Shown: positions 1,080 through 40,019, counted from the stretch's first letter. The stretch is DNA of 64,000 nucleotides from Gaiellaceae bacterium (GCA_036518135.1 DATDNT010000080.1:9074-73073), one strand, 5' to 3'. Notes: a model not told the origin generated them from the letters alone. Numbers and translations are program-made.

Positions 1080-1093
1080 TCCCGCGAGATCAC

Positions 1094-1145
1094 GGGCGAT
1101 GGAGCTCCGCCCTCGACCGCCGGGAACGGCTGATGGCTCCTACTC
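1094..1145 (+). promoter_or_regulatory. fluoride riboswitch (crcB RNA motif)
   Basis: GGGCGATGGAGCTCCGCCC-TCGAC-CGCCGGGAACGGC-TGATGGCTCCTACTC. P1 is GGGCG/CGCCC. The hairpin is GCCG-GGAA-CGGC. Pseudoknot strands are GGAGC/GCUCC. It lies directly upstream of crcB and is nearly collinear with the remembered Thermotoga aptamer. Confidence 0.85.
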
Positions 1146-1165
1146 CAACGCGAAAGGAGCCACGC

Positions 1166-1543
1166 ATGCCCGTGATCGTGGGTGTCGCGCTCGGAGGAGC
1201 GGTCGGAGCATCGGCGCGTTGGCTGCTCGATCGGTTCATCGAAGAGCGCAGCGACTCGATCTTCCCGTGGTCGACGTTCACGATCAACGTCACCGGCTGC
1301 TTCCTGATCGGGATCCTCACCGAGCAGCTTGTCGACCGGCATCACATCCCGGCGTGGATCCGCGTCGGCGCGATCGTCGGCGTGCTCGGCGGCTACACGA
1401 CGTTCTCGACGTTCTCCCAGGAGACGCTCGGCCTGCTCGAGACGCCGCACGACGTCCCCGTCGCCCTCGTGTACGCGGCGGGGAGCGTCGCGGTCGGCGT
1501 GCTCGGGGTGTACGCCGGCGTCGTCCTAGGACGCGCGTTCTAG
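1166..1543 (+). CDS. crcB: fluoride ion channel CrcB/FluC
   Basis: The 125-aa protein MPVIVGVALGGAVGASARWLL...FPWSTFTINVTGCFLIGIL...GGYTTFSTFSQE carries the CrcB signature motifs. AGGAG sits 6 nt before the ATG. Confidence 0.9.
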   Translation: MPVIVGVALGGAVGASARWLLDRFIEERSDSIFPWSTFTINVTGCFLIGILTEQLVDRHHIPAWIRVGAIVGVLGGYTTFSTFSQETLGLLETPHDVPVALVYAAGSVAVGVLGVYAGVVLGRAF

Positions 1544-3972: not shown

Positions 3973-6570
<2,598 letters not shown>

Positions 6571-6686
6571 GTGGAGCCGGAATCTATCCCTCATGGCATG
6601 TATGCAACTCCGGTCAGGTGTTGCCCGCATCCGGAACGACCCGTATGCTCCGCCGACTTCGTACCACTTACCAGGGAGGTTTTCCC

Positions 6687-7644: not shown

Positions 7645-7830
7645 CTAGTCGCCTGCGGCGCCGGCCCGGCGGCCGGGTCGGCGCCGCGCGCGGTACTCGG
7701 CGATCCACGCAAGGGCCCGCAGCCCGAACCAGAACGGCGTGAAGAGCCCGTAGAACAGGACGAGCGCGGCGCCGAGCGCGGCGTACCACGTGGCCCAGCG
7801 CCACTTCGGGACCGGAGGCTTCGGCTTCAC
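7645..7830 (-). CDS. small membrane protein (61 aa), coupled to PDRP gene
   Basis: GTG 7830 overlaps the stop of the upstream gene (GTGA). The protein reads VKPKPPVPKWRWATWYAALGAALVLFYGLFTPFWFGLRALAWIAEY... GC3 is high. Confidence 0.5.
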   Translation of the reverse strand: MKPKPPVPKWRWATWYAALGAALVLFYGLFTPFWFGLRALAWIAEYRARRRPGRRAGAAGD

Positions 7831-8648
7831 GCCGTCGCCGTCTTCGCGGCGTCGCGCCGCTGCTCGACCGCGCGGATGATCCGGTGCGCGATCTCCTCGA
7901 TCGAGAGCTCGCTCACCTCGATCACCGGGCAGCCGAGGCGGCGGTGGATGCGGGAGGCGTAGTCGAGCTCGTCGTAGATCTCGCTGAGCTCGGCGTACTT
8001 GCGGTCGCCGCGCATCCATCGGATGCGCTCGCCGCGGATCTCCGACAGCCGCTGCGCGTCGATCGTCAGTCCGACCACCTTCGTCTGGTCGATCGTGAAC
8101 AGCTCCGGCGGCGGGTCGATCCCCTTGACGAGCGGGACGTTCGCCGCCTTGTAGCCGAGGTAGCCGAGGTAGATCGAGAGCGGCGTCTTCGACGTGCGCG
8201 ACACGCCGACGAGCACGATGTCGGCCTCGCGCAATCCCGTGCCGACGCCGTCGTCGAACTTGACGGCGAACTCGATCGCCGACATGCGGCGGAAGTACGC
8301 GTCGTTCAGCGGCGGCCGCGCGCCCGGCTTCATCTTCGCCGTCTGGCCCGAGACCTTCGCGATCGCGTCGATCGGGTGGCCGAGCAGGTCGCAGTAATGG
8401 AGCTTCGCCTTGCGGCAGAGCGCACGCATGCACTCGCGCAGCTCCGGGTCGACCAGCGTGTAGACGACGACCGCCGGCCGGCCCTTCATCCGGTCGACCG
8501 CGAGCTGCAGGTCGGCGATCGTCTCGACGCGCGGATGCCGGATCTCGAGGAACTCCTGCTCCGGGAACTGGGCCTCGAGCGCCTGCACGAGGCGCTGCGC
8601 CGTCTCACCGGTCGCGTCGGAGATCATGTGGAGCTCGACGGGGGTCAC
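7827..8648 (-). CDS. pyruvate phosphate dikinase regulatory protein (bifunctional kinase/pyrophosphorylase, DUF299)
   Basis: 273 aa starting LHMISDATGETAQRLV... It carries the P-loop-like VLVGVSRTSKTPLSIYLG motif typical of PDRP/PpsR. Confidence 0.9.
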   Translation of the reverse strand: MTPVELHMISDATGETAQRLVQALEAQFPEQEFLEIRHPRVETIADLQLAVDRMKGRPAVVVYTLVDPELRECMRALCRKAKLHYCDLLGHPIDAIAKVSGQTAKMKPGARPPLNDAYFRRMSAIEFAVKFDDGVGTGLREADIVLVGVSRTSKTPLSIYLGYLGYKAANVPLVKGIDPPPELFTIDQTKVVGLTIDAQRLSEIRGERIRWMRGDRKYAELSEIYDELDYASRIHRRLGCPVIEVSELSIEEIAHRIIRAVEQRRDAAKTATA

Positions 8649-9600: not shown

Positions 9601-10536
9601 ATGGGTCTCGCCCACTGGGACGACGTCGAATGGCACCGCCGCGCGAAGGGCGAGATGGACGCCGAGTGGCAGCTCCTCGGCGGCGCCGCCGGCACCGTCG
9701 GGGTCGGCGTCAACCGCGTGCGCGTCGCCCCGGGCAAGCAGCCGACGCCGCCTCACTCGCACGGCGCCTCCGAGGAGGTGTACTTCGTGCTCGCGGGCTC
9801 CGGCCTCGCATGGCAGGACGGAGACGTGCACGAGGTCGGCCCGCGCGACTGCATCGTGCAGACGGCCGACCACTTCGAGCACACGTTCGTGGCGGGCCCC
9901 GACGGCCTCGAGTACCTCGTCTACGGCACCCGGCACCCGACGGAGATCGGCTGGCTGCCCCGCTCGCGCGCGATCCGGATCGGCTGGCCGTGGGCCGAGG
10001 GCCGAGACGACGATCCGTGGGACGTCGAGGCGACACTGGGGCCGCTCGAGCTCGGCGACCCGAAGCCGCGGCCGCAGAACATCAAGAACGTCGACGAGGT
10101 CGAGCTGCAGAGCGACCGGCACCAGACGTGGGCGGGCTTCGACGGCACCGAGCTCGCCGGGATCGCATGGGAGAAGATCGCCCCAGGCAAGATGGGCTCC
10201 GTCCCGCATTGCCACTCCGAGGAGGAGGAGATCTTCGTCATCCTCGATGGATCGGCGACGCTCGAGCTCTGGCCGTCGCCGCGCAAGGCCGGGTTCGGCG
10301 CCGAGCGCGAGCAGCACGAGCTCCGCCCCGGCCACGTCGTCGCGCGGCCGCCCGGCACCGGAGTCTCGCATTCGTTCGTCGCCGGCGACGAGGGCTGCAC
10401 GATGCTCGTCTACGGCACGCGCAGGCCGAACGACCTCGGCTACTACCCGCGCTCCAACAAGATCAACTTCCGCGGGCTCGGCGTGATTGCCCGCGTCGAG
10501 CCGCTCGACTATTTCGACGGCGAACCGGACGACTAG
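9601..10536 (+). CDS. bicupin-domain protein
   Basis: Two cupin units are present: PPHSHGASEEVYFVLAGSG...HTF and VPHCHSEEEEIFVILDGSA...HSF. The real ATG is at 9601, inside a longer shadow ORF. Confidence 0.75.
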   Translation: MGLAHWDDVEWHRRAKGEMDAEWQLLGGAAGTVGVGVNRVRVAPGKQPTPPHSHGASEEVYFVLAGSGLAWQDGDVHEVGPRDCIVQTADHFEHTFVAGPDGLEYLVYGTRHPTEIGWLPRSRAIRIGWPWAEGRDDDPWDVEATLGPLELGDPKPRPQNIKNVDEVELQSDRHQTWAGFDGTELAGIAWEKIAPGKMGSVPHCHSEEEEIFVILDGSATLELWPSPRKAGFGAEREQHELRPGHVVARPPGTGVSHSFVAGDEGCTMLVYGTRRPNDLGYYPRSNKINFRGLGVIARVEPLDYFDGEPDD

Positions 10537-10550
10537 GTAGTTTCGAGGCG

Positions 10551-11882
10551 ATGGCCTCGGACGTCGTCACCGTCGAGAAAGTCGCATCGCTGTGCCGCCG
10601 CCGCGGCTTCGTGTACCCGTCGTCGGACATCTACGGCGGCCTCGGCTCCGCGTACGACTACGGCCACTACGGCGTCCTCCTGCGCCAGAACATCAAGAAC
10701 GAGTGGTGGCGGTCGATGATCCAGGAGCGCGAGGACGTCGTCGCACTCGACTCCGCGATCATCCTCAACCCGCAGGTCTGGGTCGCGTCGGGCCACGTCG
10801 GCGGCTTCTCGGACCCGATGGTCGACTGCCGCACGTGCAAGCTCCGCTTCCGCGCCGACGACCTCGAGCACGCGCAATGCGGCAAGCGGCCGTCGAAGCA
10901 CCCGGGCGAGGACGCGCAGTGCGACCTGACGGAGGCGCGGCAGTTCAACCTGATGTTCGACACGCACGTCGGCGCAGTCCGCGACGACGCGTCCGTCGCG
11001 TATCTTCGCCCCGAGACGGCGCAGGGCATCTTCACGAACTTCAAGAACGTGACGTCGTCGCTTCGCGTGAAGCCGCCGTTCGGGATCGCACAGATCGGCA
11101 AGAGCTTCCGCAACGAGATCACGCCCGGCAACTTCATCTTCCGGCTGCGCGAGTTCGAGCAGATGGAGATGGAGTTCTTCGTGCCGCCGACCGACGCGGG
11201 CGAGTGGCACGCGTACTGGATCGAGGAGCGCCGGCAGTGGTACCTCCGGCTCGGGCTGACGGAGGAGCGGCTGCGCGTGCGCAAGCACGAGGGCGACGAG
11301 CTGTCGCACTACTCGAGCGCGACCTCCGACATCGAGTACCTCTACCCCATCGGCTGGATGGAGCTCGAGGGGATCGCACACCGCGGCGACTACGACCTCA
11401 TGCAACACTCGAACGCGTCCGGGACGAAGCTCGAATGGATCGGTCACGAGGAGCGCTACGTCCCGCACGTGATCGAGCCGGCCGGCGGTGTCGACCGGAC
11501 GATGCTCGCGTTCCTGTGCGACGGCTACGACGAGGAGACGGTGGCCGACCGACCGCGCACCGTGCTGCGACTCCATCCGCGCGTCGCACCGGTGAAGGCA
11601 GCCGTGCTGCCGCTGATCGGCCGCGACTCGGGCATGGTCGAGAAAGCGCGCGCCCTCTACACCGACCTGCGGAAGTCGATGGTCGCCGAGTACGACGACG
11701 CCGCCGCGATCGGCAAGCGCTACCGCCGCCAGGACGAGATCGGGACGCCGTGGGCGTTGACCGTCGACGAGCAGACGCTCGCAGACGACACGGTGACGCT
11801 CCGCGACCGCGACACGCTCGAGCAGGAGCGCATCCCGCTCGCAGGCGTCAAGCAGCTCCTGCTCGACCGCCTCGACGCTTGA
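10551..11882 (+). CDS. glyQS: glycine--tRNA ligase (dimeric GlyQS type)
   Basis: Starts MASDVVTVEKVASLCRRRGFVYPSSDIYGGLGSAYDYGHYG and contains FRNEITPGNFIFRLREFEQMEMEFF. Class II GlyRS motifs are present. Confidence 0.95.
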   Translation: MASDVVTVEKVASLCRRRGFVYPSSDIYGGLGSAYDYGHYGVLLRQNIKNEWWRSMIQEREDVVALDSAIILNPQVWVASGHVGGFSDPMVDCRTCKLRFRADDLEHAQCGKRPSKHPGEDAQCDLTEARQFNLMFDTHVGAVRDDASVAYLRPETAQGIFTNFKNVTSSLRVKPPFGIAQIGKSFRNEITPGNFIFRLREFEQMEMEFFVPPTDAGEWHAYWIEERRQWYLRLGLTEERLRVRKHEGDELSHYSSATSDIEYLYPIGWMELEGIAHRGDYDLMQHSNASGTKLEWIGHEERYVPHVIEPAGGVDRTMLAFLCDGYDEETVADRPRTVLRLHPRVAPVKAAVLPLIGRDSGMVEKARALYTDLRKSMVAEYDDAAAIGKRYRRQDEIGTPWALTVDEQTLADDTVTLRDRDTLEQERIPLAGVKQLLLDRLDA

Positions 11883-12760
11883 GCTGGGTCGAGCACGAGC
11901 TCGAAGGCCGCCCGCTCTTCGTGTGGGCGCCGCACGACCGCTCTCGCTCGTACCCGACCGTCTACGTCCTGCACGCGCACATGCGTTCGGCGCGCTGGTG
12001 GTTCAACGTCGAGCCGTTCGAGGTGTCGTACCCGGACCGCATCGAGCAGATGGCGCCCGACGCCGTCGTCGTCCTCGTCGACGGCTGGACGGAGCTCGGA
12101 GGCGGCCAGTGGATCGGGGCCCTCGGGACATATCTCCGCGACGAGGTCGTGCCGTTCGTCGACGCGTCGTACCCGTGCAACGGCGTTCGCGGCCTTCAGG
12201 GCAAGTCGTCCGGCGGCTACGGCGCCGTCGTGCACTGCCTCGAGCGGCCGGACCTCTTCCACGCGTTCGCTGCGCACGCGCCCGACGCACTGTTCGAGGT
12301 GACGATCGCACACGGCTTCCCCGCCGTCGCGCGTGCGCTGCGCGGCTCGTCGCTCGCTGCAGTCCTCGCGTCGCTCGACGGGCTCAGCTCGCACGAGGAC
12401 GCGCTCGTGGTCGAGGTCGCCGCCGCTGCGCGCGCCTTCGGCGACGGCACGCTCCCGTTCGACGCGCTCGGCCGGCCGGACGAGCGCTTCGAGGCGTGGC
12501 TCCAGCACGATCCGGTGCGGCTCGCGTCACGGCACGCGGACGCCGTACGTTCCCTCCGCGGCGCCTGGCTCGACGCCGGGAACCGCGACGAGTACTTCCT
12601 CGACGCCGGCGCGCTCGCGCTCCGCGACGCGTTGCTCGCGGCCGGGCTCCCCGACGAGCGCCTCCGGTTCGAGCTCTTCGACGGAGGCCACGGCGGGATG
12701 AGCGGGCGCTATCCGGCCTCGCTCGAGTGGCTCGTCGGCTGCCTCTCCATCACCTTGTAG
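11879..12760 (+). CDS. esterase-family alpha/beta hydrolase (enterochelin-esterase-like)
   Basis: TTG 11879 overlaps the glyQS TGA (TTGA). It contains YPTVYVLHAH and the nucleophile elbow GKSSGGYGA. Confidence 0.7.
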   Translation: MSWVEHELEGRPLFVWAPHDRSRSYPTVYVLHAHMRSARWWFNVEPFEVSYPDRIEQMAPDAVVVLVDGWTELGGGQWIGALGTYLRDEVVPFVDASYPCNGVRGLQGKSSGGYGAVVHCLERPDLFHAFAAHAPDALFEVTIAHGFPAVARALRGSSLAAVLASLDGLSSHEDALVVEVAAAARAFGDGTLPFDALGRPDERFEAWLQHDPVRLASRHADAVRSLRGAWLDAGNRDEYFLDAGALALRDALLAAGLPDERLRFELFDGGHGGMSGRYPASLEWLVGCLSITL

Positions 12761-32378: not shown

Positions 32379-33129
32379 CGGCGACCCATCGGTCGAAGGC
32401 GGGCGGGACGGCTGCGTTGTCTCGCTGGACGAGGTGGAGGACGAGCTCACGGTTTCCCTTCGGGCCGGGCAGGCCCGAGTCTACGACGCCGACGGGCTCT
32501 CCCCCGCACGCGACGAGCGCGGCTGCGACCTCGCGCACGACGCGCCGCCGCACCTCGTCGTCGCGGACGACGCCCTTCGGCGTCTCCGCCTTCCCCGCCT
32601 CGAACTGCGGCTTCACGAGCACGACCGCCTGCCAGCCGGGCCGTGCGAGCGCGAGCGCCGGCGGCAGCGCGAGCTTCACCGAGATGAACGACACGTCGCA
32701 CGTGACGAGCTGCGGCGGGAACGGAAGCTCCGTCAGCGACCGCGCGTTGACGCGCTCCATCACGACGACGCGCGGGTCGTCGCGGATCTTGGAGTGCAGC
32801 TGGCCGTAGCCGACGTCGAGCGCGATCACGCGTGCGGCACCGCGTTGCAGCAGCACGTCGGTGAAGCCGCCGGTCGACGCGCCCACGTCGAGGCAGTCGA
32901 GACCTGCGACGTCGATCGCGAACGCGTCGAGCGCGTTCGCGAGCTTGTGCCCGGCGCGCGAGACGTAGGGCGGCGGCGCGAGGACCTCGAGCGGCGCCGT
33001 CTCGTCGACCTGCTCGCCGGGCTTCGCGTGCCCGGGCACCCGCCCCGCCATGACGAGCGCCTGCGCCTGCGAGCGCGACTCCGCGAGCCCCCGCTCGACG
33101 AGCAGGACGTCAAGCCGTTTCTTGGGCAA
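32365..33129 (-). CDS. tlyA: TlyA-family rRNA 2'-O-methyltransferase
   Basis: TTG start, then PKKRLDVLLVERGLAESRSQAQALV (S4 domain) and DVGASTGGFTD (SAM motif). Confidence 0.88.
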   Translation of the reverse strand: MPKKRLDVLLVERGLAESRSQAQALVMAGRVPGHAKPGEQVDETAPLEVLAPPPYVSRAGHKLANALDAFAIDVAGLDCLDVGASTGGFTDVLLQRGAARVIALDVGYGQLHSKIRDDPRVVVMERVNARSLTELPFPPQLVTCDVSFISVKLALPPALALARPGWQAVVLVKPQFEAGKAETPKGVVRDDEVRRRVVREVAAALVACGGEPVGVVDSGLPGPKGNRELVLHLVQRDNAAVPPAFDRWVADAVG

Positions 33130-34315
33130 ACGTCTGTCCTTCCGCGAGCACGGCGAGGATGAAGTTGAGCGACGCGGCGCTCGCGGCGACGGCGGCGATC
33201 GCGTAGACGGCGTGCAGACCGAGCCCCGCGAAGAGCGCGCCCGCGGCGGCGTACGCAGCCGGCCGGATCACCTGGTTCGAGACGATGATCGTCTGCACGA
33301 CCTTCGGGAAGAGCGGCGGCGGGACGCGCGCGGTCAGGAGGCCGAGGTACGGCGCGTTCGACATCGGGTTGGCGAAGCCGACGACGGCCATCGCGGCGAC
33401 CATCACGGCAAGCGGCACGTGCGGCACGAGCAGCCAGAACGGCACGCCGAGCCCGACGCAGGCGACGATCCCGAGCGGCCCCGGTCTGAACCGCGCGAGC
33501 GCCAGGTACGTGGCGACGGAGCCGACCACGCTGCCGCCGCCGTACGCCGCGAACAGGAGCCCGGCGACGCGCGGGTTCCGGTGGTAGTCGGTGAACGCGA
33601 CGACCGGGAACGATGCGAATACGAGCGGGAACGCAGCGCCGAAGAGGAGCGGCGAGAGGATCGCGCGTCGCACGAACCGGTCGCGGGCGATGTACGCGAG
33701 GCCGGCGCGGATCCCGCTCGGCTCGTCGCTCTCGTGCACCTCGCGCACGACCCGCACGAACAGCCCGATCAGCGCGACGGAGACGAGGTACGACGCGGCG
33801 TCGATCCACATCACGTTCGTCGCGCCGACCGCGGCAATCAGGATGCCTGCGAGCGCCGGGCCCGCGAAGGAGGTGACGTTGGTCGCGCCCTCGACGAGGC
33901 TGTTCGCACGCGCGATCCGTTGCTCGTCGTTGCCGACGATCGCGGGGATCGCCGTCCGCTGGCACGTGAAGTACGCCGTCGAGAGGAGGCCGTGCAGGAA
34001 CGCGACGACGAGGATGATCGCGAAGGAGAGGCCGCCGACTTCCTTCAGGAACGGGATGAGCGCGATCAGCGGCGCGCGGCCGAGGTCGGACAGGAGCATC
34101 GTCGTGCGCGGGCCGAGGCGGTCGACGACGCTGCCGGCGTGCAGCCCGAACAGGACGAACGGGACGAGCTCGATCGCGAAGACGAGCCCCATGCGCGTCG
34201 AGGAGTGCGTCGTCGCGAGCACGAACCACGGCAGCGCGAGCGCCGACAGCTGCGACCCGAGCTGCGAGACGAGCTCCGCCGTCGTCAGCGCGAGGAGCGT
34301 CCGGTCGCGGATCAT
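33110..34315 (-). CDS. MFS transporter (EntS/MFS_3-like)
   Basis: 401 aa with 12 TM spans, starting LTTAELVSQLGSQLSALALPWFVL. ATGA overlap with the upstream MFS gene. Confidence 0.8.
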   Translation of the reverse strand: MIRDRTLLALTTAELVSQLGSQLSALALPWFVLATTHSSTRMGLVFAIELVPFVLFGLHAGSVVDRLGPRTTMLLSDLGRAPLIALIPFLKEVGGLSFAIILVVAFLHGLLSTAYFTCQRTAIPAIVGNDEQRIARANSLVEGATNVTSFAGPALAGILIAAVGATNVMWIDAASYLVSVALIGLFVRVVREVHESDEPSGIRAGLAYIARDRFVRRAILSPLLFGAAFPLVFASFPVVAFTDYHRNPRVAGLLFAAYGGGSVVGSVATYLALARFRPGPLGIVACVGLGVPFWLLVPHVPLAVMVAAMAVVGFANPMSNAPYLGLLTARVPPPLFPKVVQTIIVSNQVIRPAAYAAAGALFAGLGLHAVYAIAAVAASAASLNFILAVLAEGQTFAQETA

Positions 34316-35538
34316 GCGGGAGCGGGCGCCGCGCGGATGTGCCAGACGGCCGGCTGCGCCAGCACGAGGAGGTTCATCGCGAGAATGATCGCGCCCGCGC
34401 CGAGCAGCGTCTGACGGACGCCGAGGAGAACCGCGGCCGGCCCCGCGAGCGCAGTGCCGAGCGGGACGAGCACGAAGGAGCCGAGCGCGTCGTAGGAGCT
34501 CACCCGCGCGCGGGCGTGCTCCGGCACCTGCTGCTGGAACACGGTGAACCAGAGCGCGAGGTGCACGGCGATACCCGCGCCCGCGAGGATCTGCGACGCG
34601 AGCAGCACCGGCACCGGCACGAGACCGGCGAGCATCCACTGCCCGAGCCCGAAGGGCACGGCCGCGAGGCACGACGCGAGCAGCGGCCGGCTCGGCTTCC
34701 AGCGCAGCGTCACGACGCCGCCGAGGATGAGCCCGAGCCCGAAGAACGCCAGCACGACGCCGTAGGTCGCCGCGCCGTTGTAGTGCTCCTTCATGACGAG
34801 CGGCGCGAGCACTCCCCAGGTCTGGCCGAAGAGGTTCCCGATGCTGAAGAACACGATCGTGTTGAAGATCCACTTCTGCCGGCGGAACTCGCTCCAGCCT
34901 TCGCGCATTTCGCGCAGGAACGGCTCCGGCCGGGCAACGTCCTCGCGCGGCTCGACCCGCACGCGCGAGAGGAGGTACGCCGCGACGGCGAAGCTCACTG
35001 CGTCGACGATGATCGCGCCGCCCGGGCTGCCGAGCGTCACGAGCGCGCCGCCGACCACCGGGGCGGCGAAGCCGAGGATCGACCGGCTGAGGCCCATCAG
35101 CGCGTTCGCCTGCTGGAGCCGCGTGTTCGAGACGACGGCCGGGATCAGCCCGTTCTGGGCAGGGATGACGAAGCCGTCGGCGAGGCCGTAGACGACGTTC
35201 AGCGCCGCGATGACGGCGACGGTCGCATGGTGGCCGACGAGGAGCGCTCCGACCGTCGCCTGCACCGCCGCCTGCACACAGGCGACGGCGACGAGCACGT
35301 GATGCCGCGGCAGACGGTCGGAGATGACCCCGGCGGCGAGCGTGATCGCCGCCGCCGCGGCCTGGCGGCAGGCGAGCACCGCGCCGACGGCCGTCGGCGA
35401 GTTGTGCGAGATGTCGAGGACGGCGAACGCAAGCGCGATCGCGGCGACGCCGTCACCGATCGCGGAGATCGTCGTCGAGGAGAAGACGAGCCGGAACTGG
35501 CGCTCCGCGAGTGCGCCGAGGCGCCCTTCGAGCCTCAT
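34312..35538 (-). CDS. MFS transporter (EntS/MFS_3-like), distant paralog of the next gene
   Basis: 408 aa starting FRLVFSSTTISAIGDGVAAIALAFAVL. ATGA overlap with the ispA-like stop. Confidence 0.8.
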   Translation of the reverse strand: MRLEGRLGALAERQFRLVFSSTTISAIGDGVAAIALAFAVLDISHNSPTAVGAVLACRQAAAAAITLAAGVISDRLPRHHVLVAVACVQAAVQATVGALLVGHHATVAVIAALNVVYGLADGFVIPAQNGLIPAVVSNTRLQQANALMGLSRSILGFAAPVVGGALVTLGSPGGAIIVDAVSFAVAAYLLSRVRVEPREDVARPEPFLREMREGWSEFRRQKWIFNTIVFFSIGNLFGQTWGVLAPLVMKEHYNGAATYGVVLAFFGLGLILGGVVTLRWKPSRPLLASCLAAVPFGLGQWMLAGLVPVPVLLASQILAGAGIAVHLALWFTVFQQQVPEHARARVSSYDALGSFVLVPLGTALAGPAAVLLGVRQTLLGAGAIILAMNLLVLAQPAVWHIRAAPAPA

Positions 35539-36317
35539 GCCGTGCGGACGGCGAGGTCGTCGACGATCGAGGCGAGAACGGCGGTGTCGGCCCCGAGCTC
35601 GGCGAGCCGCGCGTGCGCCCGCTCGCCCGCCTCGTCGGCCAGGCGGCGCGCGCCGTCCTCGCCGACCGCGAGCACGTACCCGTCGCCGTCGAGGACGTCG
35701 TCGACGATCTGGAAGAGCAGCCCGAGCTCCGCCGAGAACGCCCGCCACGGCGGGTGCTCCTCGACGGGCACGTCGGATGCCCAGAGCGCGCACATCACCG
35801 ACGCCGAGAACAGGGCCCCCGTCTTCAGCGCGTGCAGGCGGTCGAGCTCGGCGCCGCCCTCGAGGTCGAGCTGCTGCCCTGCGATCATCGCGAGCGTCGC
35901 ATCCACGAGCTCGCGCGCGACCGCGCCCGTCGGATAGGTGAGCGCGAGCCGCATCGCCTCGACGAGCAGCGCGTCGCCGGCGAGGATCGCCGTCGCCTCG
36001 CCGTACTGCGCCCACACGGACGGCGCGCCGCGGCGCTCGCGGTCGTCGTCGAGCGACGGCAGGTCGTCGTGCACGAGCGAGAACGAGTGGACGAGCTCGA
36101 CCGCCGCGGCCGCGGGCAGCAGGTTCTCGACGGTCGCGCCGATCGCGTCGCCGGTCGCGAGGCACAGGACAGGCCGCACGCGTTTCCCGCCGAGTGCGTG
36201 CCGCATCGGCTCCTCGAGCGACCCCAGCTCCGCGTGCAGCGCGAGCTCGGCGAGGTACCCCTCGACGAGCGCGCGCAGCCGCTCAGTCGGCTGCGGCATC
36301 CGGATTGGGAGGCGCAT
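35535..36317 (-). CDS. ispA: short-chain polyprenyl diphosphate synthase (FPP/GGPP synthase)
   Basis: FARM motif LVHDDLPSLDD and SARM motif FQIVDDVLD are present. GGAGG lies just upstream of ATG 36317. An alternative ATG exists at 36299. Confidence 0.85.
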   Translation of the reverse strand: MRLPIRMPQPTERLRALVEGYLAELALHAELGSLEEPMRHALGGKRVRPVLCLATGDAIGATVENLLPAAAAVELVHSFSLVHDDLPSLDDDRERRGAPSVWAQYGEATAILAGDALLVEAMRLALTYPTGAVARELVDATLAMIAGQQLDLEGGAELDRLHALKTGALFSASVMCALWASDVPVEEHPPWRAFSAELGLLFQIVDDVLDGDGYVLAVGEDGARRLADEAGERAHARLAELGADTAVLASIVDDLAVRTA

Positions 36318-36507
36318 GCGCCTCCGTCTCCGCTGCGCGCTTCGCGCGCTGCAGCTCGGCTTCGACCTCCTTCGCGAGCTCGGCGAGCTCCTGCAGGATC
36401 TCGATCGCCTGATCGGGGTCCTCGGTGCCGTCGAGACGCACGCGCGCCGATTCGAGGCGCGCGAGCAGGTCCTCGGCCTTGTTCAGTGACTCGTCTGCCT
36501 GGCTCAT
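36283..36507 (-). CDS. xseB: exodeoxyribonuclease VII small subunit
   Basis: 74 aa: SLNKAEDLLARLESARVRLDGTEDPDQAIEILQELAELAKEVEAEL. ATGA overlap with the nusB stop. Confidence 0.8.
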   Translation of the reverse strand: MSQADESLNKAEDLLARLESARVRLDGTEDPDQAIEILQELAELAKEVEAELQRAKRAAETEAHAPPNPDAAAD

Positions 36508-36881
36508 GCCGCCTCCCGTTGTATCCGACCGAGGATCCCGTTGACCAGCCTCGCAGCGTCCTCCGAGGCGTACCGCTTCGCGAACGCGACGGCCTCGTTG
36601 ATCGCGACCTCTGCGGGCACCTCGCGCCGCTCGAGCTCGTGCACCGCGACACGGAGCGCGCTCCGCTCGACGGTACCGAGGCGATCGGCCGTCCAGCCTT
36701 CCGACGCGGCGGTGATGCGCGCGTCGAGCTCGGGCGCGCGCTCGGCGACCGCCTCGGCGACGCCGCGCGCCCAGGGGTCGATCTCGCCCGCGTACTGCGA
36801 GCCGATCTTCTGGCCCGACAGATCCCACTGGTAGAGCAGGAAGAGCGCCTGGCGCCGCGCCTGCCTACGCGAGAGCGGCAT
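36504..36881 (-). CDS. nusB: transcription antitermination factor NusB
   Basis: Starts MPLSRRQARRQALFLLYQWDL and contains INEAVAFAKRY and VNGILGRI. An upstream ATG at 36923 is possible. Confidence 0.88.
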   Translation of the reverse strand: MPLSRRQARRQALFLLYQWDLSGQKIGSQYAGEIDPWARGVAEAVAERAPELDARITAASEGWTADRLGTVERSALRVAVHELERREVPAEVAINEAVAFAKRYASEDAARLVNGILGRIQREAA

Positions 36882-38217
36882 CTTCGTCTCGCAATGCCTC
36901 GAGTGTCGAGGTCGAGTACTCACCGGTCCGGAACGGCTCGCTGCCGATCACCTCGAGCGCGACGTCGCGCGTCGTCGGCACGCCCTCGATGTGCGTCTCG
37001 CGGAGGGCACGCTCGGCGCGCGCGATCGCGGCGTCGCGGTCGGAGTCCCACACGATCAGCTTCGCGATCATCGAGTCGTAGAACGGCGGCACGACCGTGC
37101 CGGTCTCCACGAACGTGTCGAGGCGAATGCCGGGGCCCTGCGCGGGGTGGAAGAGCGTCACGCGGCCCGGCGACGGCCGGAAGTCGTGCGCCGGGTCCTC
37201 CGCGTTCAGGCGGATCTCGATCGCGTGCCCGCGCCGCGGCGCGCGGCCGGTGACCGACAGGCGCTCGCCCGCCGCGACGTGCAGCTGCTCGCGCACCAGG
37301 TCGAGACCCGTGCACATCTCGGTGACGGGATGCTCGACCTGCAGGCGCGCGTTCAGCTCGATGAAGTAGAAGCTGCCGTCCGGCCCCAGCAGGAACTCGA
37401 ACGTGCCGGCGTTGCGATAGCCGACCGCGCGGCACGCGCGCTCGGCCGCCGCCTCCATCTCCTCGCGCGTCTCCGGCGTCAGCGCCGCGCTCGGCGATTC
37501 CTCGATCAGCTTCTGGTGGCGGCGCTGGATCGAGCACTCGCGCTCGCCGCACGTGAGCACGTTCCCGTGCGTGTCGCAGATGACCTGGATCTCGACGTGC
37601 CGCGCGGGGCTCAGCGCCTTCTCGACGTACATCGTGCCGTCGCCGAACGCGGCCTCCGCCTCGCCCGACGCCATGCGAAACGCGTCCTCCAGCTCGTCGG
37701 CGTCGTGCACGAGGCGCATGCCTTTGCCGCCGCCGCCCGCCGTCGCCTTCAGGAGGAGCGGGAACCCGACCTCGTCCGCGACCTTGCGCACGTCCGCGAC
37801 GGACGTCGCGCCCTCGGTGCCCGGGACGGTCGGCACCTCGGCGGCGCGCATCGCCTGCTTCGCCGAGATCTTGTCGCCCATCAGCGCCATCACGTCGGCC
37901 GGCGGCCCGACGAACACGAGGTCGTTGTCGACGCACGCCTCGACGAACGCCGGGTTCTCGGAGAGGAACCCGTAGCCCGGATGGACCGCCTCGCAGCCGG
38001 TCGTCTCGGCGGCCGCGATCACGCTCGCGGTGCGCAGGTAGCTCTCGGAGGCCGCGGGCGGGCCGACGCACACGGCGTGGTCGGCCAGCCGCACGTGGAG
38101 CGCGTCCCGGTCCGCGGTCGAGTAGATCGCGACGGCCTCGACGCCGAGCTCGTGCAGCGCGCGGATCACCCGGACGGCGATCTCGCCCCGGTTCGCGACG
38201 AGGACCCGGCTGAACAT
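36865..38217 (-). CDS. accC: biotin carboxylase
   Basis: 450 aa starting MFSRVLVANRGEIAVRVIRA, with GGGGKGMRLV, ERECSIQRRHQK and ELNARLQVEHPVTE. Confidence 0.93.
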   Translation of the reverse strand: MFSRVLVANRGEIAVRVIRALHELGVEAVAIYSTADRDALHVRLADHAVCVGPPAASESYLRTASVIAAAETTGCEAVHPGYGFLSENPAFVEACVDNDLVFVGPPADVMALMGDKISAKQAMRAAEVPTVPGTEGATSVADVRKVADEVGFPLLLKATAGGGGKGMRLVHDADELEDAFRMASGEAEAAFGDGTMYVEKALSPARHVEIQVICDTHGNVLTCGERECSIQRRHQKLIEESPSAALTPETREEMEAAAERACRAVGYRNAGTFEFLLGPDGSFYFIELNARLQVEHPVTEMCTGLDLVREQLHVAAGERLSVTGRAPRRGHAIEIRLNAEDPAHDFRPSPGRVTLFHPAQGPGIRLDTFVETGTVVPPFYDSMIAKLIVWDSDRDAAIARAERALRETHIEGVPTTRDVALEVIGSEPFRTGEYSTSTLEALRDEDAALA

Positions 38218-40019
38218 CAGACGGCGGGCGGACCGGAAACGGGTTCGAGCTCGAAGAGGAGCTGGCCGTACTCGACGGGCTGCGCGTTGTCGACGTGGAT
38301 CCCGCGCACGACCGCCTCGATCTCCGCCTTCACCTCGTTCATGAGCTTCATCGCCTCGAGGATGCAGAGCGTCTGCCCCGGTGCGACGGCGTCGCCGACC
38401 TCGACGAACGCCGCGGCCCCCGGAGCCGGCGACCGGTAGAAGGTTCCGACCATCGGGCTCTCGACGCGGACGAGCGTGTCGTCGCGCGGGGGCGACGCCG
38501 GAAGCTCGGGCTCGTCGGCCGGCGGCGCCGGTGCGAGCGCGGTCCACGCCGCGGGCGCGTGCTCCGGCTGGCGCCGAACGCTCACGCGCATCCCGTTCTC
38601 CTCGATCGTGATCTCGCCGACGCCGGACTCCTGCACGATCCGCACGAGCTCGCGGATCGTCTCGGCGCGGTCCTGGTCGACGCCGCCCGCGGCGAGGGTG
38701 TCGTCGCCGCCCGAGCGTTCGCGGATCGCGCGCAGGAGCGGCTTCGCGTCGTCGCCGAACAGCGCGAGGAGCAGCAGCTCCTCCTCGCTCGACGCGAGCC
38801 CTTCCGCATCCTCGCGAAGCGTGTCGAGGTCGACCGGCGGCTCGTCCTCGAGCGCGTTCTCCTCCGTGCGGAAGTCGACGGCGCGCTTCAGCGCCTGGGC
38901 GACGGGAGCGGGCGTGCGCCCGAACTTCCCTTCGACGAGGTCGCGCAGCTCGTCGACCATCGTCGAGTAGCGGTTCGCCGTCAGCACGTTCAGAAGCGCC
39001 TGGGACGCGAGGATCTGCCCGATCGGCGCGGCGAGCGGCGGCGAGCCGACCTCGTCGCGCACCTTCGCGACCTCTTCGAGCACCTCGTCGAGGCGGTCGC
39101 CCATCGCCTGCGCGCGCAGCTGGTGGTCGAGCGCGCTCACGAGCCCGACGGGGAGCTTCTGCTGCGCGGCGCGCACCGCGATCCGCGGCGCGACCGGCGC
39201 GATCGGCTCGTCGCCGATGTGCTCGTCGACGAGCTCTGCAGCCGCCCACAACGTGTCCATGTCGACGCCGGTCGCGAGGCCGAGCCCGGCGAGCGCCTGG
39301 GCCGCCGCCTCTGCGGACACGCGGTGGGTCGTCAGCGCGACGGGGTAGACGGCCGCCGCGATCACGTCGGCGCCCGCGCGCGCGGCCTCGATCGCCGCGG
39401 CGAGCGCGTTCCCGCCGGCTCCCTGCGCGTAGAGGCCGACCGGCAGCCCCGACACGTCGCGCAGCTCCGCGACGAGCTCGCTCGCGCGGTGCGGCTGGAG
39501 CAGTGCGGCGGGGTCGTTCAGCAGCAGCCGCGCCGCGCCGAGCTCGGGCAGCCGCTTCGCCGCTTCGACGAGGGCGTCGTGGCGGCCGCTCCCGTAGAGG
39601 AGCCCGGCTTCGAACTCGCTGCCCGACGCGACGATCGCCTCCGCGCACTCGCGCAGGTTGTCGACGTCGTTGAGCGGGTCGTGCAGACGGAAGACGTCGA
39701 TGCCGCTCGCGGCGGCGCTCGCCACGAATCGGCGCGCGAGGTCGCGCCCGACGGGCCGCGACCCGACGAGGAAGCGGCCGCGCAGCGCGAGCGCGAGCGG
39801 CGTCGAGCAGCGGCCCTTCAGCGCGCGGATCCGCTCCCAGGGGCTCTCGACGCCGCGCTCGACGGCGTTGTCGAAGACACCGCCGCCCGAGACCTCGAGG
39901 TACGCGAAGCCCGCCCCGTCGAGAAGCTCGGCGAGGCGCAGCAGGTCCGCGGTCGGCATCAGACCGGCGAGCGGCTCCTGGCTGAGGACGCGGATCGTCG
40001 TGTCGACGAGGCGCGGCAT
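38217..40019 (-). CDS. OadA/PycB-type carboxyltransferase-like domain (metal ligands substituted) fused to AccB-type biotin carboxyl carrier domain
   Basis: 600 aa. The N-terminal TIM-barrel and PYC_OADA blocks (GIDVFRLHDPLND; LDEVLEEVAKVRDEVG..QILASQALLNVL) are kept. The C-terminus reads PMVGTFYRSPAPGAAAFVEVGD..LCILEAMKLMNEV. It occupies the accB position. Confidence 0.85.
   Translation of the reverse strand: MPRLVDTTIRVLSQEPLAGLMPTADLLRLAELLDGAGFAYLEVSGGGVFDNAVERGVESPWERIRALKGRCSTPLALALRGRFLVGSRPVGRDLARRFVASAAASGIDVFRLHDPLNDVDNLRECAEAIVASGSEFEAGLLYGSGRHDALVEAAKRLPELGAARLLLNDPAALLQPHRASELVAELRDVSGLPVGLYAQGAGGNALAAAIEAARAGADVIAAAVYPVALTTHRVSAEAAAQALAGLGLATGVDMDTLWAAAELVDEHIGDEPIAPVAPRIAVRAAQQKLPVGLVSALDHQLRAQAMGDRLDEVLEEVAKVRDEVGSPPLAAPIGQILASQALLNVLTANRYSTMVDELRDLVEGKFGRTPAPVAQALKRAVDFRTEENALEDEPPVDLDTLREDAEGLASSEEELLLLALFGDDAKPLLRAIRERSGGDDTLAAGGVDQDRAETIRELVRIVQESGVGEITIEENGMRVSVRRQPEHAPAAWTALAPAPPADEPELPASPPRDDTLVRVESPMVGTFYRSPAPGAAAFVEVGDAVAPGQTLCILEAMKLMNEVKAEIEAVVRGIHVDNAQPVEYGQLLFELEPVSGPPAV

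Follow-up and report, generated by a model that had tools for sequence, protein, structure and literature searches.

In Escherichia coli AccB, the biotin carboxyl carrier protein (BCCP) of heteromeric acetyl-CoA carboxylase (ACC), an N-terminal helix-hairpin binds the biotin carboxylase, and a short insertion in the biotinyl domain, the thumb, is diagnostic for ACC-type carriers. In pyruvate carboxylase, OadA and 5S, the core is a dimer of carboxyltransferase (CT) domains (PMC5059739, together with general knowledge). Both kinds of protein are joined in one gene of a stretch of 64,000 nucleotides, hereafter the window, from Gaiellaceae bacterium (GCA_036518135.1 DATDNT010000080.1:9074-73073). 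The window has a G+C content of ~72%, and the closest database relatives of the fusion protein are found in metagenome-assembled genomes (MAGs) of Gaiellaceae and Gaiellales, a soil order that ranks among the commonest soil Actinobacteria. The gene encodes a PycB/OadA-type CT domain in which the active site has been replaced, followed by what reads as a full AccB. The fusion is probably the AccB of a heteromeric ACC that descends from a PycB-AccB fusion and in which the transferase is now a conserved, non-catalytic module. The fusion gene and the biotin carboxylase gene behind it are located as follows.

38217..40019, minus strand: whole gene of the 600-residue fusion, an apparently dead PycB/OadA-type carboxyltransferase plus a full AccB (translation, Pfam, NCBIfam)
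36865..38217, minus strand: accC, biotin carboxylase of 450 residues, whose ATG overlaps the stop codon of the fusion by one base (Pfam, NCBIfam)

The fusion gene is a single unbroken open reading frame (ORF) of 600 codons plus a stop codon, which is counted in the end coordinate, and gives a product of 600 residues. The ATG at 40019 is backed by the orthologs, as these uniformly start with MP(R/A/K)LVDTT. At the other end, the TGA of the fusion overlaps the ATG of accC by one nucleotide (...gtcTGATGttc...). The accC product contains the Pfam domains Biotin_carb_N, CPSase_L_D2 and Biotin_carb_C and scores 632.7 bits against NF006367, 'acetyl-CoA carboxylase biotin carboxylase subunit', for which the cut-off is 597.

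The C-terminal part of the fusion consists of the following segments.

38568..38678, minus strand: AccB N-terminal helix-hairpin IRELVRIVQESGVGEITIEENGMRVSVRR, residues 448-484 (TIGR00531 from profile position 5; match to 4hr7_B over residues 453-589)
38475..38567, minus strand: Pro/Ala-rich flexible linker, residues 485-515 (pLDDT below 50, no invariant positions, highest dN/dS of the segments)
38241..38474, minus strand: ACC-type biotinyl domain, residues 516-593, in which the thumb is SPAPGAA and the motif EAMKLMN occurs (Pfam, phmmer, alignment)
38346..38348, minus strand: codon of K558, the predicted biotinyl-lysine (invariant throughout the alignments)

By its sequence, this carrier part is a whole AccB of ~150 residues (448-593) that extends beyond a bare biotinyl domain, because the AccB equivalog model TIGR00531 is covered nearly end to end (residues 454-592 on profile positions 5-155 of 156; 131.9 bits with a cut-off of 115.2). 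The segment IRELVRIVQESGVGEITIEENGMRVSVRR aligns with the N-termini of short AccBs from many phyla and is lacking in classical OadA/PycB carriers. The seven-residue thumb, located between FYR and FVEVG, is present in the fusion and in seven short AccBs in the alignment and absent from five classical PycB/OadA carriers. K558 lies in EAMKLMN within the Biotin_lipoyl fold, as is expected of the biotinyl-lysine of an AccB. In a genome scan, ~50 short AccBs from many phyla align just to residues ~453-593 of the fusion, and nearly all of their genes are directly followed by accC. The fusion departs from AccB in size, as it counts 600 residues with a CT-derived N-terminal extension of 445 residues, compared with ~150-180 residues and a single function. 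Judged by sequence, it therefore shows every feature of an AccB but its size.

A preliminary description, made from the sequence of the window alone, had called the last ~75 residues AccB-like. The type was correctly recognized, but the extent is really ~150 residues, as the near-full TIGR00531 match indicates. The biotinyl-lysine that it listed is K558, all of the peptides that it quoted occur in the 600-residue translation, and the one-nucleotide overlap with accC that it noted is seen. A separate short AccB made from an internal start was also considered and rejected; only two GTG codons are available, both without a Shine-Dalgarno sequence and inside the AccB helix, and neither is conserved.

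The N-terminal part contains two domains and four sites at which catalytic residues are replaced.

39210..40019, minus strand: TIM-barrel core (DRE-TIM / HMGL-like) with no predicted metal site, residues 1-270 (AlphaFold2, Foldseek, conservation, dN/dS)
38700..39209, minus strand: PYC_OADA helical domain, residues 271-440 (Pfam, alignments)
39987..39989, minus strand: codon of V11 in RVLSQE, in place of the metal-ligand Asp (phmmer, clade alignments)
39774..39782, minus strand: codons of R80-G81-R82, RGRF in place of RGQN, substrate Arg kept and Gln changed to Arg (alignments)
39516..39518, minus strand: codon of N168, in place of the carbamylated Lys, LNDPAA for IKDMAG; His in most orthologs (alignments)
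39423..39431, minus strand: codons of Y197-A198-Q199, at the His-x-His position; Q199 is invariant in the clade (alignments)

Pfam detects HMGL-like (PF00682) at residues 120-264, weakly but above cut-off (39 bits), PYC_OADA (PF02436) at residues 287-433, also above cut-off (82.4 bits), and Biotin_lipoyl (PF00364) at residues 519-591 (67.8 bits). The fold itself appears to be retained. An AlphaFold2 model (mean pLDDT 86.6) shows eight barrel strands, with barrel pLDDT mostly above 90, values of ~95 for residues 520-590 and below 50 for the linker. Foldseek matches this model to 1rqb (5S) and 2nx9 (OadA) with TM scores of 0.83-0.85 and a root-mean-square deviation of ~3 A.

The ligands were mapped by phmmer against all PDB sequences, of which 5ks8_C (PycB, E 6e-67), 2nx9 (OadA) and 1rqb (5S) were the best matches, and by alignment to these three structures. 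In these alignments, the canonical motifs RD(A/G)HQS, RGQN, IKDMA and H-x-H correspond to RVLSQE, RGRF, LNDPA and Y-A-Q in the fusion. Counted along the chain, Asp17, Lys178, His207 and His209 of 2nx9, which we take to be its Zn ligands, fall on V11, N168, Y197 and Q199. The Ser/Thr of the PGGMxSN loop shuttles protons in the canonical enzymes; the loop reads PVGLVSA in the fusion, and most orthologs have Ala in place of the catalytic Ser/Thr. The changes extend further into the domain. Among 23 intact sequences, 130 CT-region positions are conserved at 85% or more, and the Gaiellales clade keeps 55 but not 75 of these at that level. The positions not kept include D11, W44, Q82, F113, K168, M170, H197, H199, D221, G291, M293 and N296. 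Also, the match of the fusion to NF006761, the model for pyruvate carboxylase subunit B, runs over the full length but scores 384.1 bits, under the cut-off of 402, and the score against TIGR01108 is 320 with a cut-off of 756.5. The other oadA, pycB and 5S equivalogs are far under their cut-offs. Taken together, the CT domain appears to be catalytically dead.

The replacements of Asp by Val, Lys by Asn, His-x-His by Tyr..Gln and RGQN by RGRF had all been proposed in the preliminary description and are confirmed by the alignments to three solved structures. The profile alignment that it suggested places non-ligand residues at all four metal positions, and in the structure model that it called for the eight-stranded barrel is kept, matching 5S and OadA. 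Its core idea of a biotin carrier in the accB slot with a dead CT domain is thus supported by the alignments and the model, as well as by the purifying selection described next.

The loss is not restricted to this genome. In all 16 Gaiellales-clade orthologs examined, the Asp, the Lys and the second His are missing, and the first His is kept in two of them; a sequencing error is dismissed on the basis of this shared loss. More than 6,500 database matches show the same architecture, with 81-88% identity and the same three domains in the best 120 listed. Among the GTDB species-representative genomes, it is also present in 13 clade loci, some of them on contigs as long as 1.5 and 2.6 Mb. The dead fusion is therefore an order-wide state in Gaiellales and not an oddity of one genome. 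One further locus, L033 (JBLMYA010000075.1), is binned as 'Verrucomicrobiota' and carries a Gaiellales-type dead fusion (65% identity) together with accC; it is probably a mis-binned contig.

Within the clade, the mean column conservation reaches 0.79 in the barrel and 0.81 in the biotinyl domain, with 0.70 in PYC_OADA and 0.45 in the linker, and invariant positions make up 33% of the barrel, 36% of the biotinyl domain and none of the linker. For the six closest pairs, dN/dS is 0.085-0.24 in the barrel and 0.10-0.34 in the biotinyl domain, and mostly higher in the linker; because the absolute values are unreliable at a third-position G+C content of ~0.92 and with dS of merely 0.4-0.8, only the comparison between domains was used. 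The dead barrel is constrained as tightly as the biotinyl domain, which makes it a maintained feature and not a product of decay.

Outside Gaiellales, related fusions with an intact site have been found. In a family survey, 1.84 billion representative proteins were searched and 47 full-length matches were aligned. This survey and the genome scan, in which loci are denoted by L, show OadA/PycB-type CT domains joined to a full AccB in many lineages. Intact sites are present in the genome scan in Bacillota (Desulfosporosinus fructosivorans, Desulfitobacterium, Thermincola, Syntrophomonas and Peptococcaceae) and in Coriobacteriia (Adlercreutzia sp. ZJ141 and Eggerthellaceae). The intact fusions occupy the accB slot of Clostridia, Coriobacteriia and a MAG lineage labelled Thermoleophilia (L003, L023-L032, L036, L038 and L090; gene at ~10001-11900 in most) and clear both models, with 741-879 bits for NF006761 and 141-169 bits for TIGR00531. 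In at least four further lineages, the site has degraded along different lines, with ligand strings such as SKDD, DKSK, DMHH and DSQQ. In a profile search that yielded 26 proteins, the SKDD group (P0333) and the near-intact P0327 came from MAGs labelled Thermoleophilia.

The genomic position of these fusions is equally consistent. Directly after the fusion, accC is found at every locus with downstream DNA except L008, where accA adjoins. In a Syntrophomonadaceae MAG, the fusion lies between the spoIIIA operon and accC-Asp23-nusB-folD-xseA-xseB-ispA, which is the position of accB in Bacillus. In lineages other than Gaiellales, the fusion is linked to further ACC and fatty acid synthesis genes: the degenerate fusions L005 and L006 adjoin accA-accD-fabF-fabG-fabD-fabZ, plus bioY or birA, and the intact fusion L008 is located after accD and accA. 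The loci L090, L091 and L001 have a common extended gene order, aroC-aroKB-aroQ-pepP-efp-[fusion]-accC-(Asp23)-nusB-dxs-tlyA-nadK-recN-pyrG-M20. All ligands are intact in L090. In its relative L091, with 95% barrel identity and from a MAG labelled Thermoleophilia, Lys to Thr is the single ligand change, and in L001 the fusion is dead and of the SKDD type. The window matches this order save for local insertions and has ~20 genes of synteny in common with L090 and L091, and the Gaiellales gene is thus a degenerate positional ortholog of the intact PycB-AccB fusion. A direct comparison of L091:1170-3059 with L090:10001-11869 gives ITDMAAL and IKDMAAL, respectively, and the difference represents either a very early step towards losing the site or an error of sequencing or assembly.

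In the window, Pfam gives the gene order aroKB, aroQ, pepP, efp, fusion, accC, nusB, ispA, tlyA, nadK and recN, and pyrG also belongs to this order. The preliminary description had listed efp, the fusion, accC, nusB, xseB, ispA, tlyA and recN; this order stands except for xseB, as the 74-residue ORF at that position (36283-36507, minus strand) has no Exonuc_VII_S match in Pfam even at E 0.1. An adjoining xseA is likewise not evident, and a promoter and terminator scan around the operon gave nothing notable near the fusion gene. Two tandem MFS transporter genes (33110-35538, minus strand) split ispA from tlyA, unlike the order in L001 and L090. A gene of the Asp23/YqhY family directly follows accC in L001 (13225-13527), L003 (13350-14358) and L090 (13258-13620). 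It is absent in the window between 36865 and 36923, where accC directly meets nusB with overlapping ORFs. In Bacillus subtilis, Asp23/YqhY is described as the AccC regulator RfaA in a preprint (bioRxiv 10.1101/2024.02.19.580884).

The pairwise identities give an indication of the tempo of the site loss. Pairs of intact fusions are 50-55% identical in AccC and 59-64% in the barrel. Pairs of a dead and an intact fusion are 52-69% identical in AccC and just 33-37% in the barrel, most clearly L001 and L090 (AccC 68%, barrel 33%). Within Gaiellales, the barrel identity tracks that of AccC again (83/81 and 64/62). These values are described by a course in which the loss of catalysis would be followed by a burst of barrel change and then by renewed constraint. 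The differing substitution patterns, together with the identities of L001 and L090, suggest that several lineages lost the CT site independently. Long branches dominate a neighbour-joining tree calculated for the CT region, and loss events were not counted from it.

One change recurs among the degraded forms. The Gln of RGQN, position 82 of the fusion (39774-39776), is Gln in 37 of the 38 sequences with four ligands, and Arg in 31 of the 39 sequences with at most one ligand, the latter belonging to several lineages. Across this column of ~90 homologs, none of the 38 four-ligand sequences has Arg or Lys. It is plausible that Arg at this position fills the vacated metal site or offsets the lost charge of the metal.

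From these data, the following mechanism can be proposed. The C-terminal 150 residues would act as a complete, ordinary AccB that docks on the co-translated AccC. K558 would be biotinylated, and the carboxybiotin would be swung to a carboxyltransferase encoded elsewhere. The N-terminal 445 residues would derive from the pyruvate carboxyltransferase of a PycB-AccB fusion. In the intact forms, pyruvate carboxylase and acetyl-CoA carboxylase presumably both draw on the same carrier and the same AccC. In the Gaiellales lineage, pyruvate carboxylation would have been lost with the replacement of the four ligands, the Gln of RGQN and the Ser/Thr loop, and the barrel would have been remodelled in a burst and then frozen under purifying selection. 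A barrel that is refrozen after the loss of catalysis points to a non-catalytic job. The dead domain could serve in oligomerisation or as a scaffold on which AccB and AccC are organised. By analogy, this role is considered the most likely one, because the CT domains of the family form obligate dimers, and a sensor that binds small acids is considered less likely. What we infer from the evidence as a whole is that the protein acts in ACC in the Gaiellales genome, that the intact forms have two roles and that the dead domain is a scaffold.

Several points weigh against this proposal. The loss of catalysis is read solely from sequence. R10, Q14 and R80, at positions that bind pyruvate in the canonical enzymes, are kept in the Gaiellales clade. 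In addition, the new invariant polar residues H113, Y197, Q199, H231, R232 and R82 line the former pocket. Judged from the sequences, this pocket pattern suits ligand binding at least as well as a pure scaffold. Furthermore, accA, accD and PccB-type carboxyltransferase genes are absent from the 64-kb window and from ~300 kb of Gaiellales-clade loci. The partner search was performed by tblastn with AccA and AccD of L005, L006 and L008 and with the biotinyl domain; with E values of up to 0.01 allowed, it covered the window together with every Gaiellales-clade locus, and a second biotinyl domain was not found there either. A short accB or a BC-BCCP alpha subunit may do the ACC work elsewhere in the genome, and most Actinobacteria rely on BC-BCCP alpha acyl-CoA carboxylases (PMC3199775). 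The genome paper of Gaiella occulta makes no mention of carboxylases.

The kept substrate-binding residues and the new polar invariants leave room for a ligand-sensing role. The dead barrel could bind pyruvate, oxaloacetate or a similar compound, or its own biotinyl domain, and in this way tune the supply of carrier to ACC. This alternative is possible, though clearly less probable than the proposed non-catalytic module; it concerns the N-terminal domain alone and is compatible with the identity as AccB. Apart from the three substrate contacts, which are invariant, many invariant motifs lie on the old active-site face (DT..R.L.QEP, VSGGG.F, ALRGR.LVG, FR..DP.ND, QG..G and YP.A...HR...E), the new polar invariants are located at exactly this face, and the rates of a burst followed by a freeze fit the gain of a new constraint. 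However, no ligand can be named, and within the clade position 168 is N, H or L and the first-His position is Y or H. Other dead lineages remodelled the pocket in unrelated ways (SKDD, DKSK, DMHH), which argues against a common ligand, and the invariance at the strand ends may simply reflect the stability of a barrel without metal.

It is improbable that the fusion and AccC are not the ACC pair of the cell, with malonyl-CoA being made by a BC-BCCP alpha subunit and an AccD-type beta subunit, and the pair belonging to another carboxylase or being a relic. This would agree with the fact that accA and accD are near the gene in no Gaiellales locus, and with Actinobacteria generally being without E. 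coli-type ACC subunits and using acyl-CoA carboxylases (PMC3199775). On the other hand, the AccB and AccC parts clear the ACC family models, both are under strong purifying selection throughout the order, and the locus is the universal accB-accC slot. The fusion is found next to accA, accD and fab genes in other lineages, and a relic is not expected to hold a dN/dS of ~0.1-0.2.

Very unlikely is the explanation that the domain is still an enzyme, namely a metal-independent or differently metallated carboxyltransferase or decarboxylase with a new substrate. The fold and the substrate-binding Arg and Gln are retained, and new histidines at the catalytic face (H113, H168 in most orthologs, and H231) could in principle form a new site. 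Continued catalysis is nevertheless unlikely because DRE-TIM metallolyases, according to established knowledge, need a divalent metal for the enolate, and all four ligands are lost. The PGG loop is changed, and the proton-shuttling Ser/Thr is replaced by Ala in the majority of the orthologs. The candidate histidines are also not constant, as position 168 is Asn here and Leu in L007 and H113 is Asp in L014 and L017, and independent lineages ruin the site in differing ways. A reading as artefact or decaying pseudogene, whether through chimeric assembly, through a frameshift in pycB or as a neutral remnant, for which just the loss of catalytic residues speaks, is already refuted by the uninterrupted ORF, the architecture in the more than 6,500 matches including 1.5-2.6 Mb contigs of independent assemblies, the consistent starts of the orthologs and a dN/dS well below 1.

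A more far-reaching idea, which is doubtful at present, is that the intact fusions represent a third organisation of pyruvate carboxylase that shares its AccB-type carrier and AccC with ACC. In Gaiellales, and independently of these in at least four further lineages, the pseudoenzyme would then be an allosteric or auto-inhibitory module of the carrier and not a passive scaffold; it may, for example, sense 2-oxoacids or park the biotinyl domain. If this is true, the shared swinging arm would couple anaplerosis to lipid synthesis by competition.

Elsewhere in the window, a pyruvate phosphate dikinase with three PPDK/PEP-utilising domains is encoded at 3973-6630 (minus strand), and the ORF at 7827-8648 (minus strand) resembles what we assume to be a pyruvate phosphate dikinase regulatory protein. 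The dikinase bears on the node of phosphoenolpyruvate (PEP), pyruvate and oxaloacetate in an organism with a dead PycB-type site. A fluoride riboswitch (RF01734) at 1086-1149 (plus strand), with 49.1 bits and a gathering threshold of 34, is the only match of an Rfam scan of the whole window. It is directly followed by a membrane ORF of 125 residues at 1166-1543 (plus strand), which is presumably crcB.

The fusions are relevant for annotation as well as for the evolution and regulation of carboxylases. Their public names are inconsistent, being 'oxaloacetate decarboxylase (Na+ extruding) alpha subunit' at JGI and 'AccB' in PGAP, and under the JGI name, metabolic reconstructions would be given a Na+ pump or a pyruvate carboxylase that does not exist. 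They provide a natural series of pseudoenzymes at one locus, from intact through the loss of one ligand (L091) to fully remodelled, with independent losses, a burst followed by a freeze and a recurrent change of Gln to Arg. The sequences of the intact relatives suggest a holoenzyme logic in which one biotin carrier and one biotin carboxylase would be used for two carboxylases. These observations also bear on the assembly and regulation of bacterial acetyl-CoA carboxylase, an antibiotic target.

Compared with the AccB/BCCP of heteromeric ACC (E. coli AccB; TIGR00531; 4hr7 and 1bdo), the fusion is alike in its C-terminus of ~150 residues, with the hairpin, linker, thumb and EAMKLMN, and in the overlap with accC. 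It differs in the N-terminal extension of 445 residues and in that the genes of the carboxyltransferase partner are not nearby. To our knowledge, no characterised AccB has such an extension. PycB (5ks8), OadA (2nx9) and 5S (1rqb) are the top matches of the fusion and resemble it in the order of barrel, PYC_OADA and biotinyl parts and in R10, Q14 and R80. With respect to these proteins, the fusion is altered at the four ligands and at roughly half of the positions that the family conserves, and the Gln of RGQN as well as the PGGMxSN loop are changed. Its carrier is of the AccB type with a thumb, and those of PycB and OadA are of the AMKM(E/Q) type without a thumb. As it lacks the defining catalytic features and stays below the curated cut-offs, the fusion should not be filed as PycB or OadA.

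In the two-subunit pyruvate carboxylase of the MfPC type (alpha2beta4), the BT-like domain is formed by sheets of the beta subunit and a C-terminal Ala-rich helix of the alpha subunit of ~471 residues (PMC5059739). Unlike in this Gram-negative enzyme, the AccB N-terminal segment of the fusion stands where the BT-like sheets would be, and AccC is without the extra helix, for which there is no room because Biotin_carb_C ends at residue 441 of 450. The BT and central domains of eukaryotic ACC, PCC and MCC are non-enzymatic parts that hold the holoenzyme together (PMC5059739 and PMC4833862); they differ from the dead domain of the fusion in fold and origin and are not derived from a carboxyltransferase. 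A conceptual parallel is found in plants, where the BADC proteins are described (PMC12706156) as non-biotinylated BCCP-like subunits of plastid ACC. Here too, a dead relative of a carboxylase part is retained inside an ACC system; in BADC, however, the carrier itself is dead and forms a separate inhibitory subunit, and the dead parts are not homologous.

The closest relatives are the uncharacterised intact PycB-AccB fusions, for which PGAP also uses the name AccB. They have the same architecture, the same AccB part and the same slot (efp or spoIIIA, then fusion-accC-(Asp23)-nusB). Unlike the protein of the window, they have complete RDAHQS, RGQN/S, IKDMAG, HxH and PGGMxSN motifs and pass both models. 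In a literature search, no published description of an accB-slot fusion or of its dead form was found, and the fusions constitute an undescribed family that spans multiple phyla and includes intact forms.

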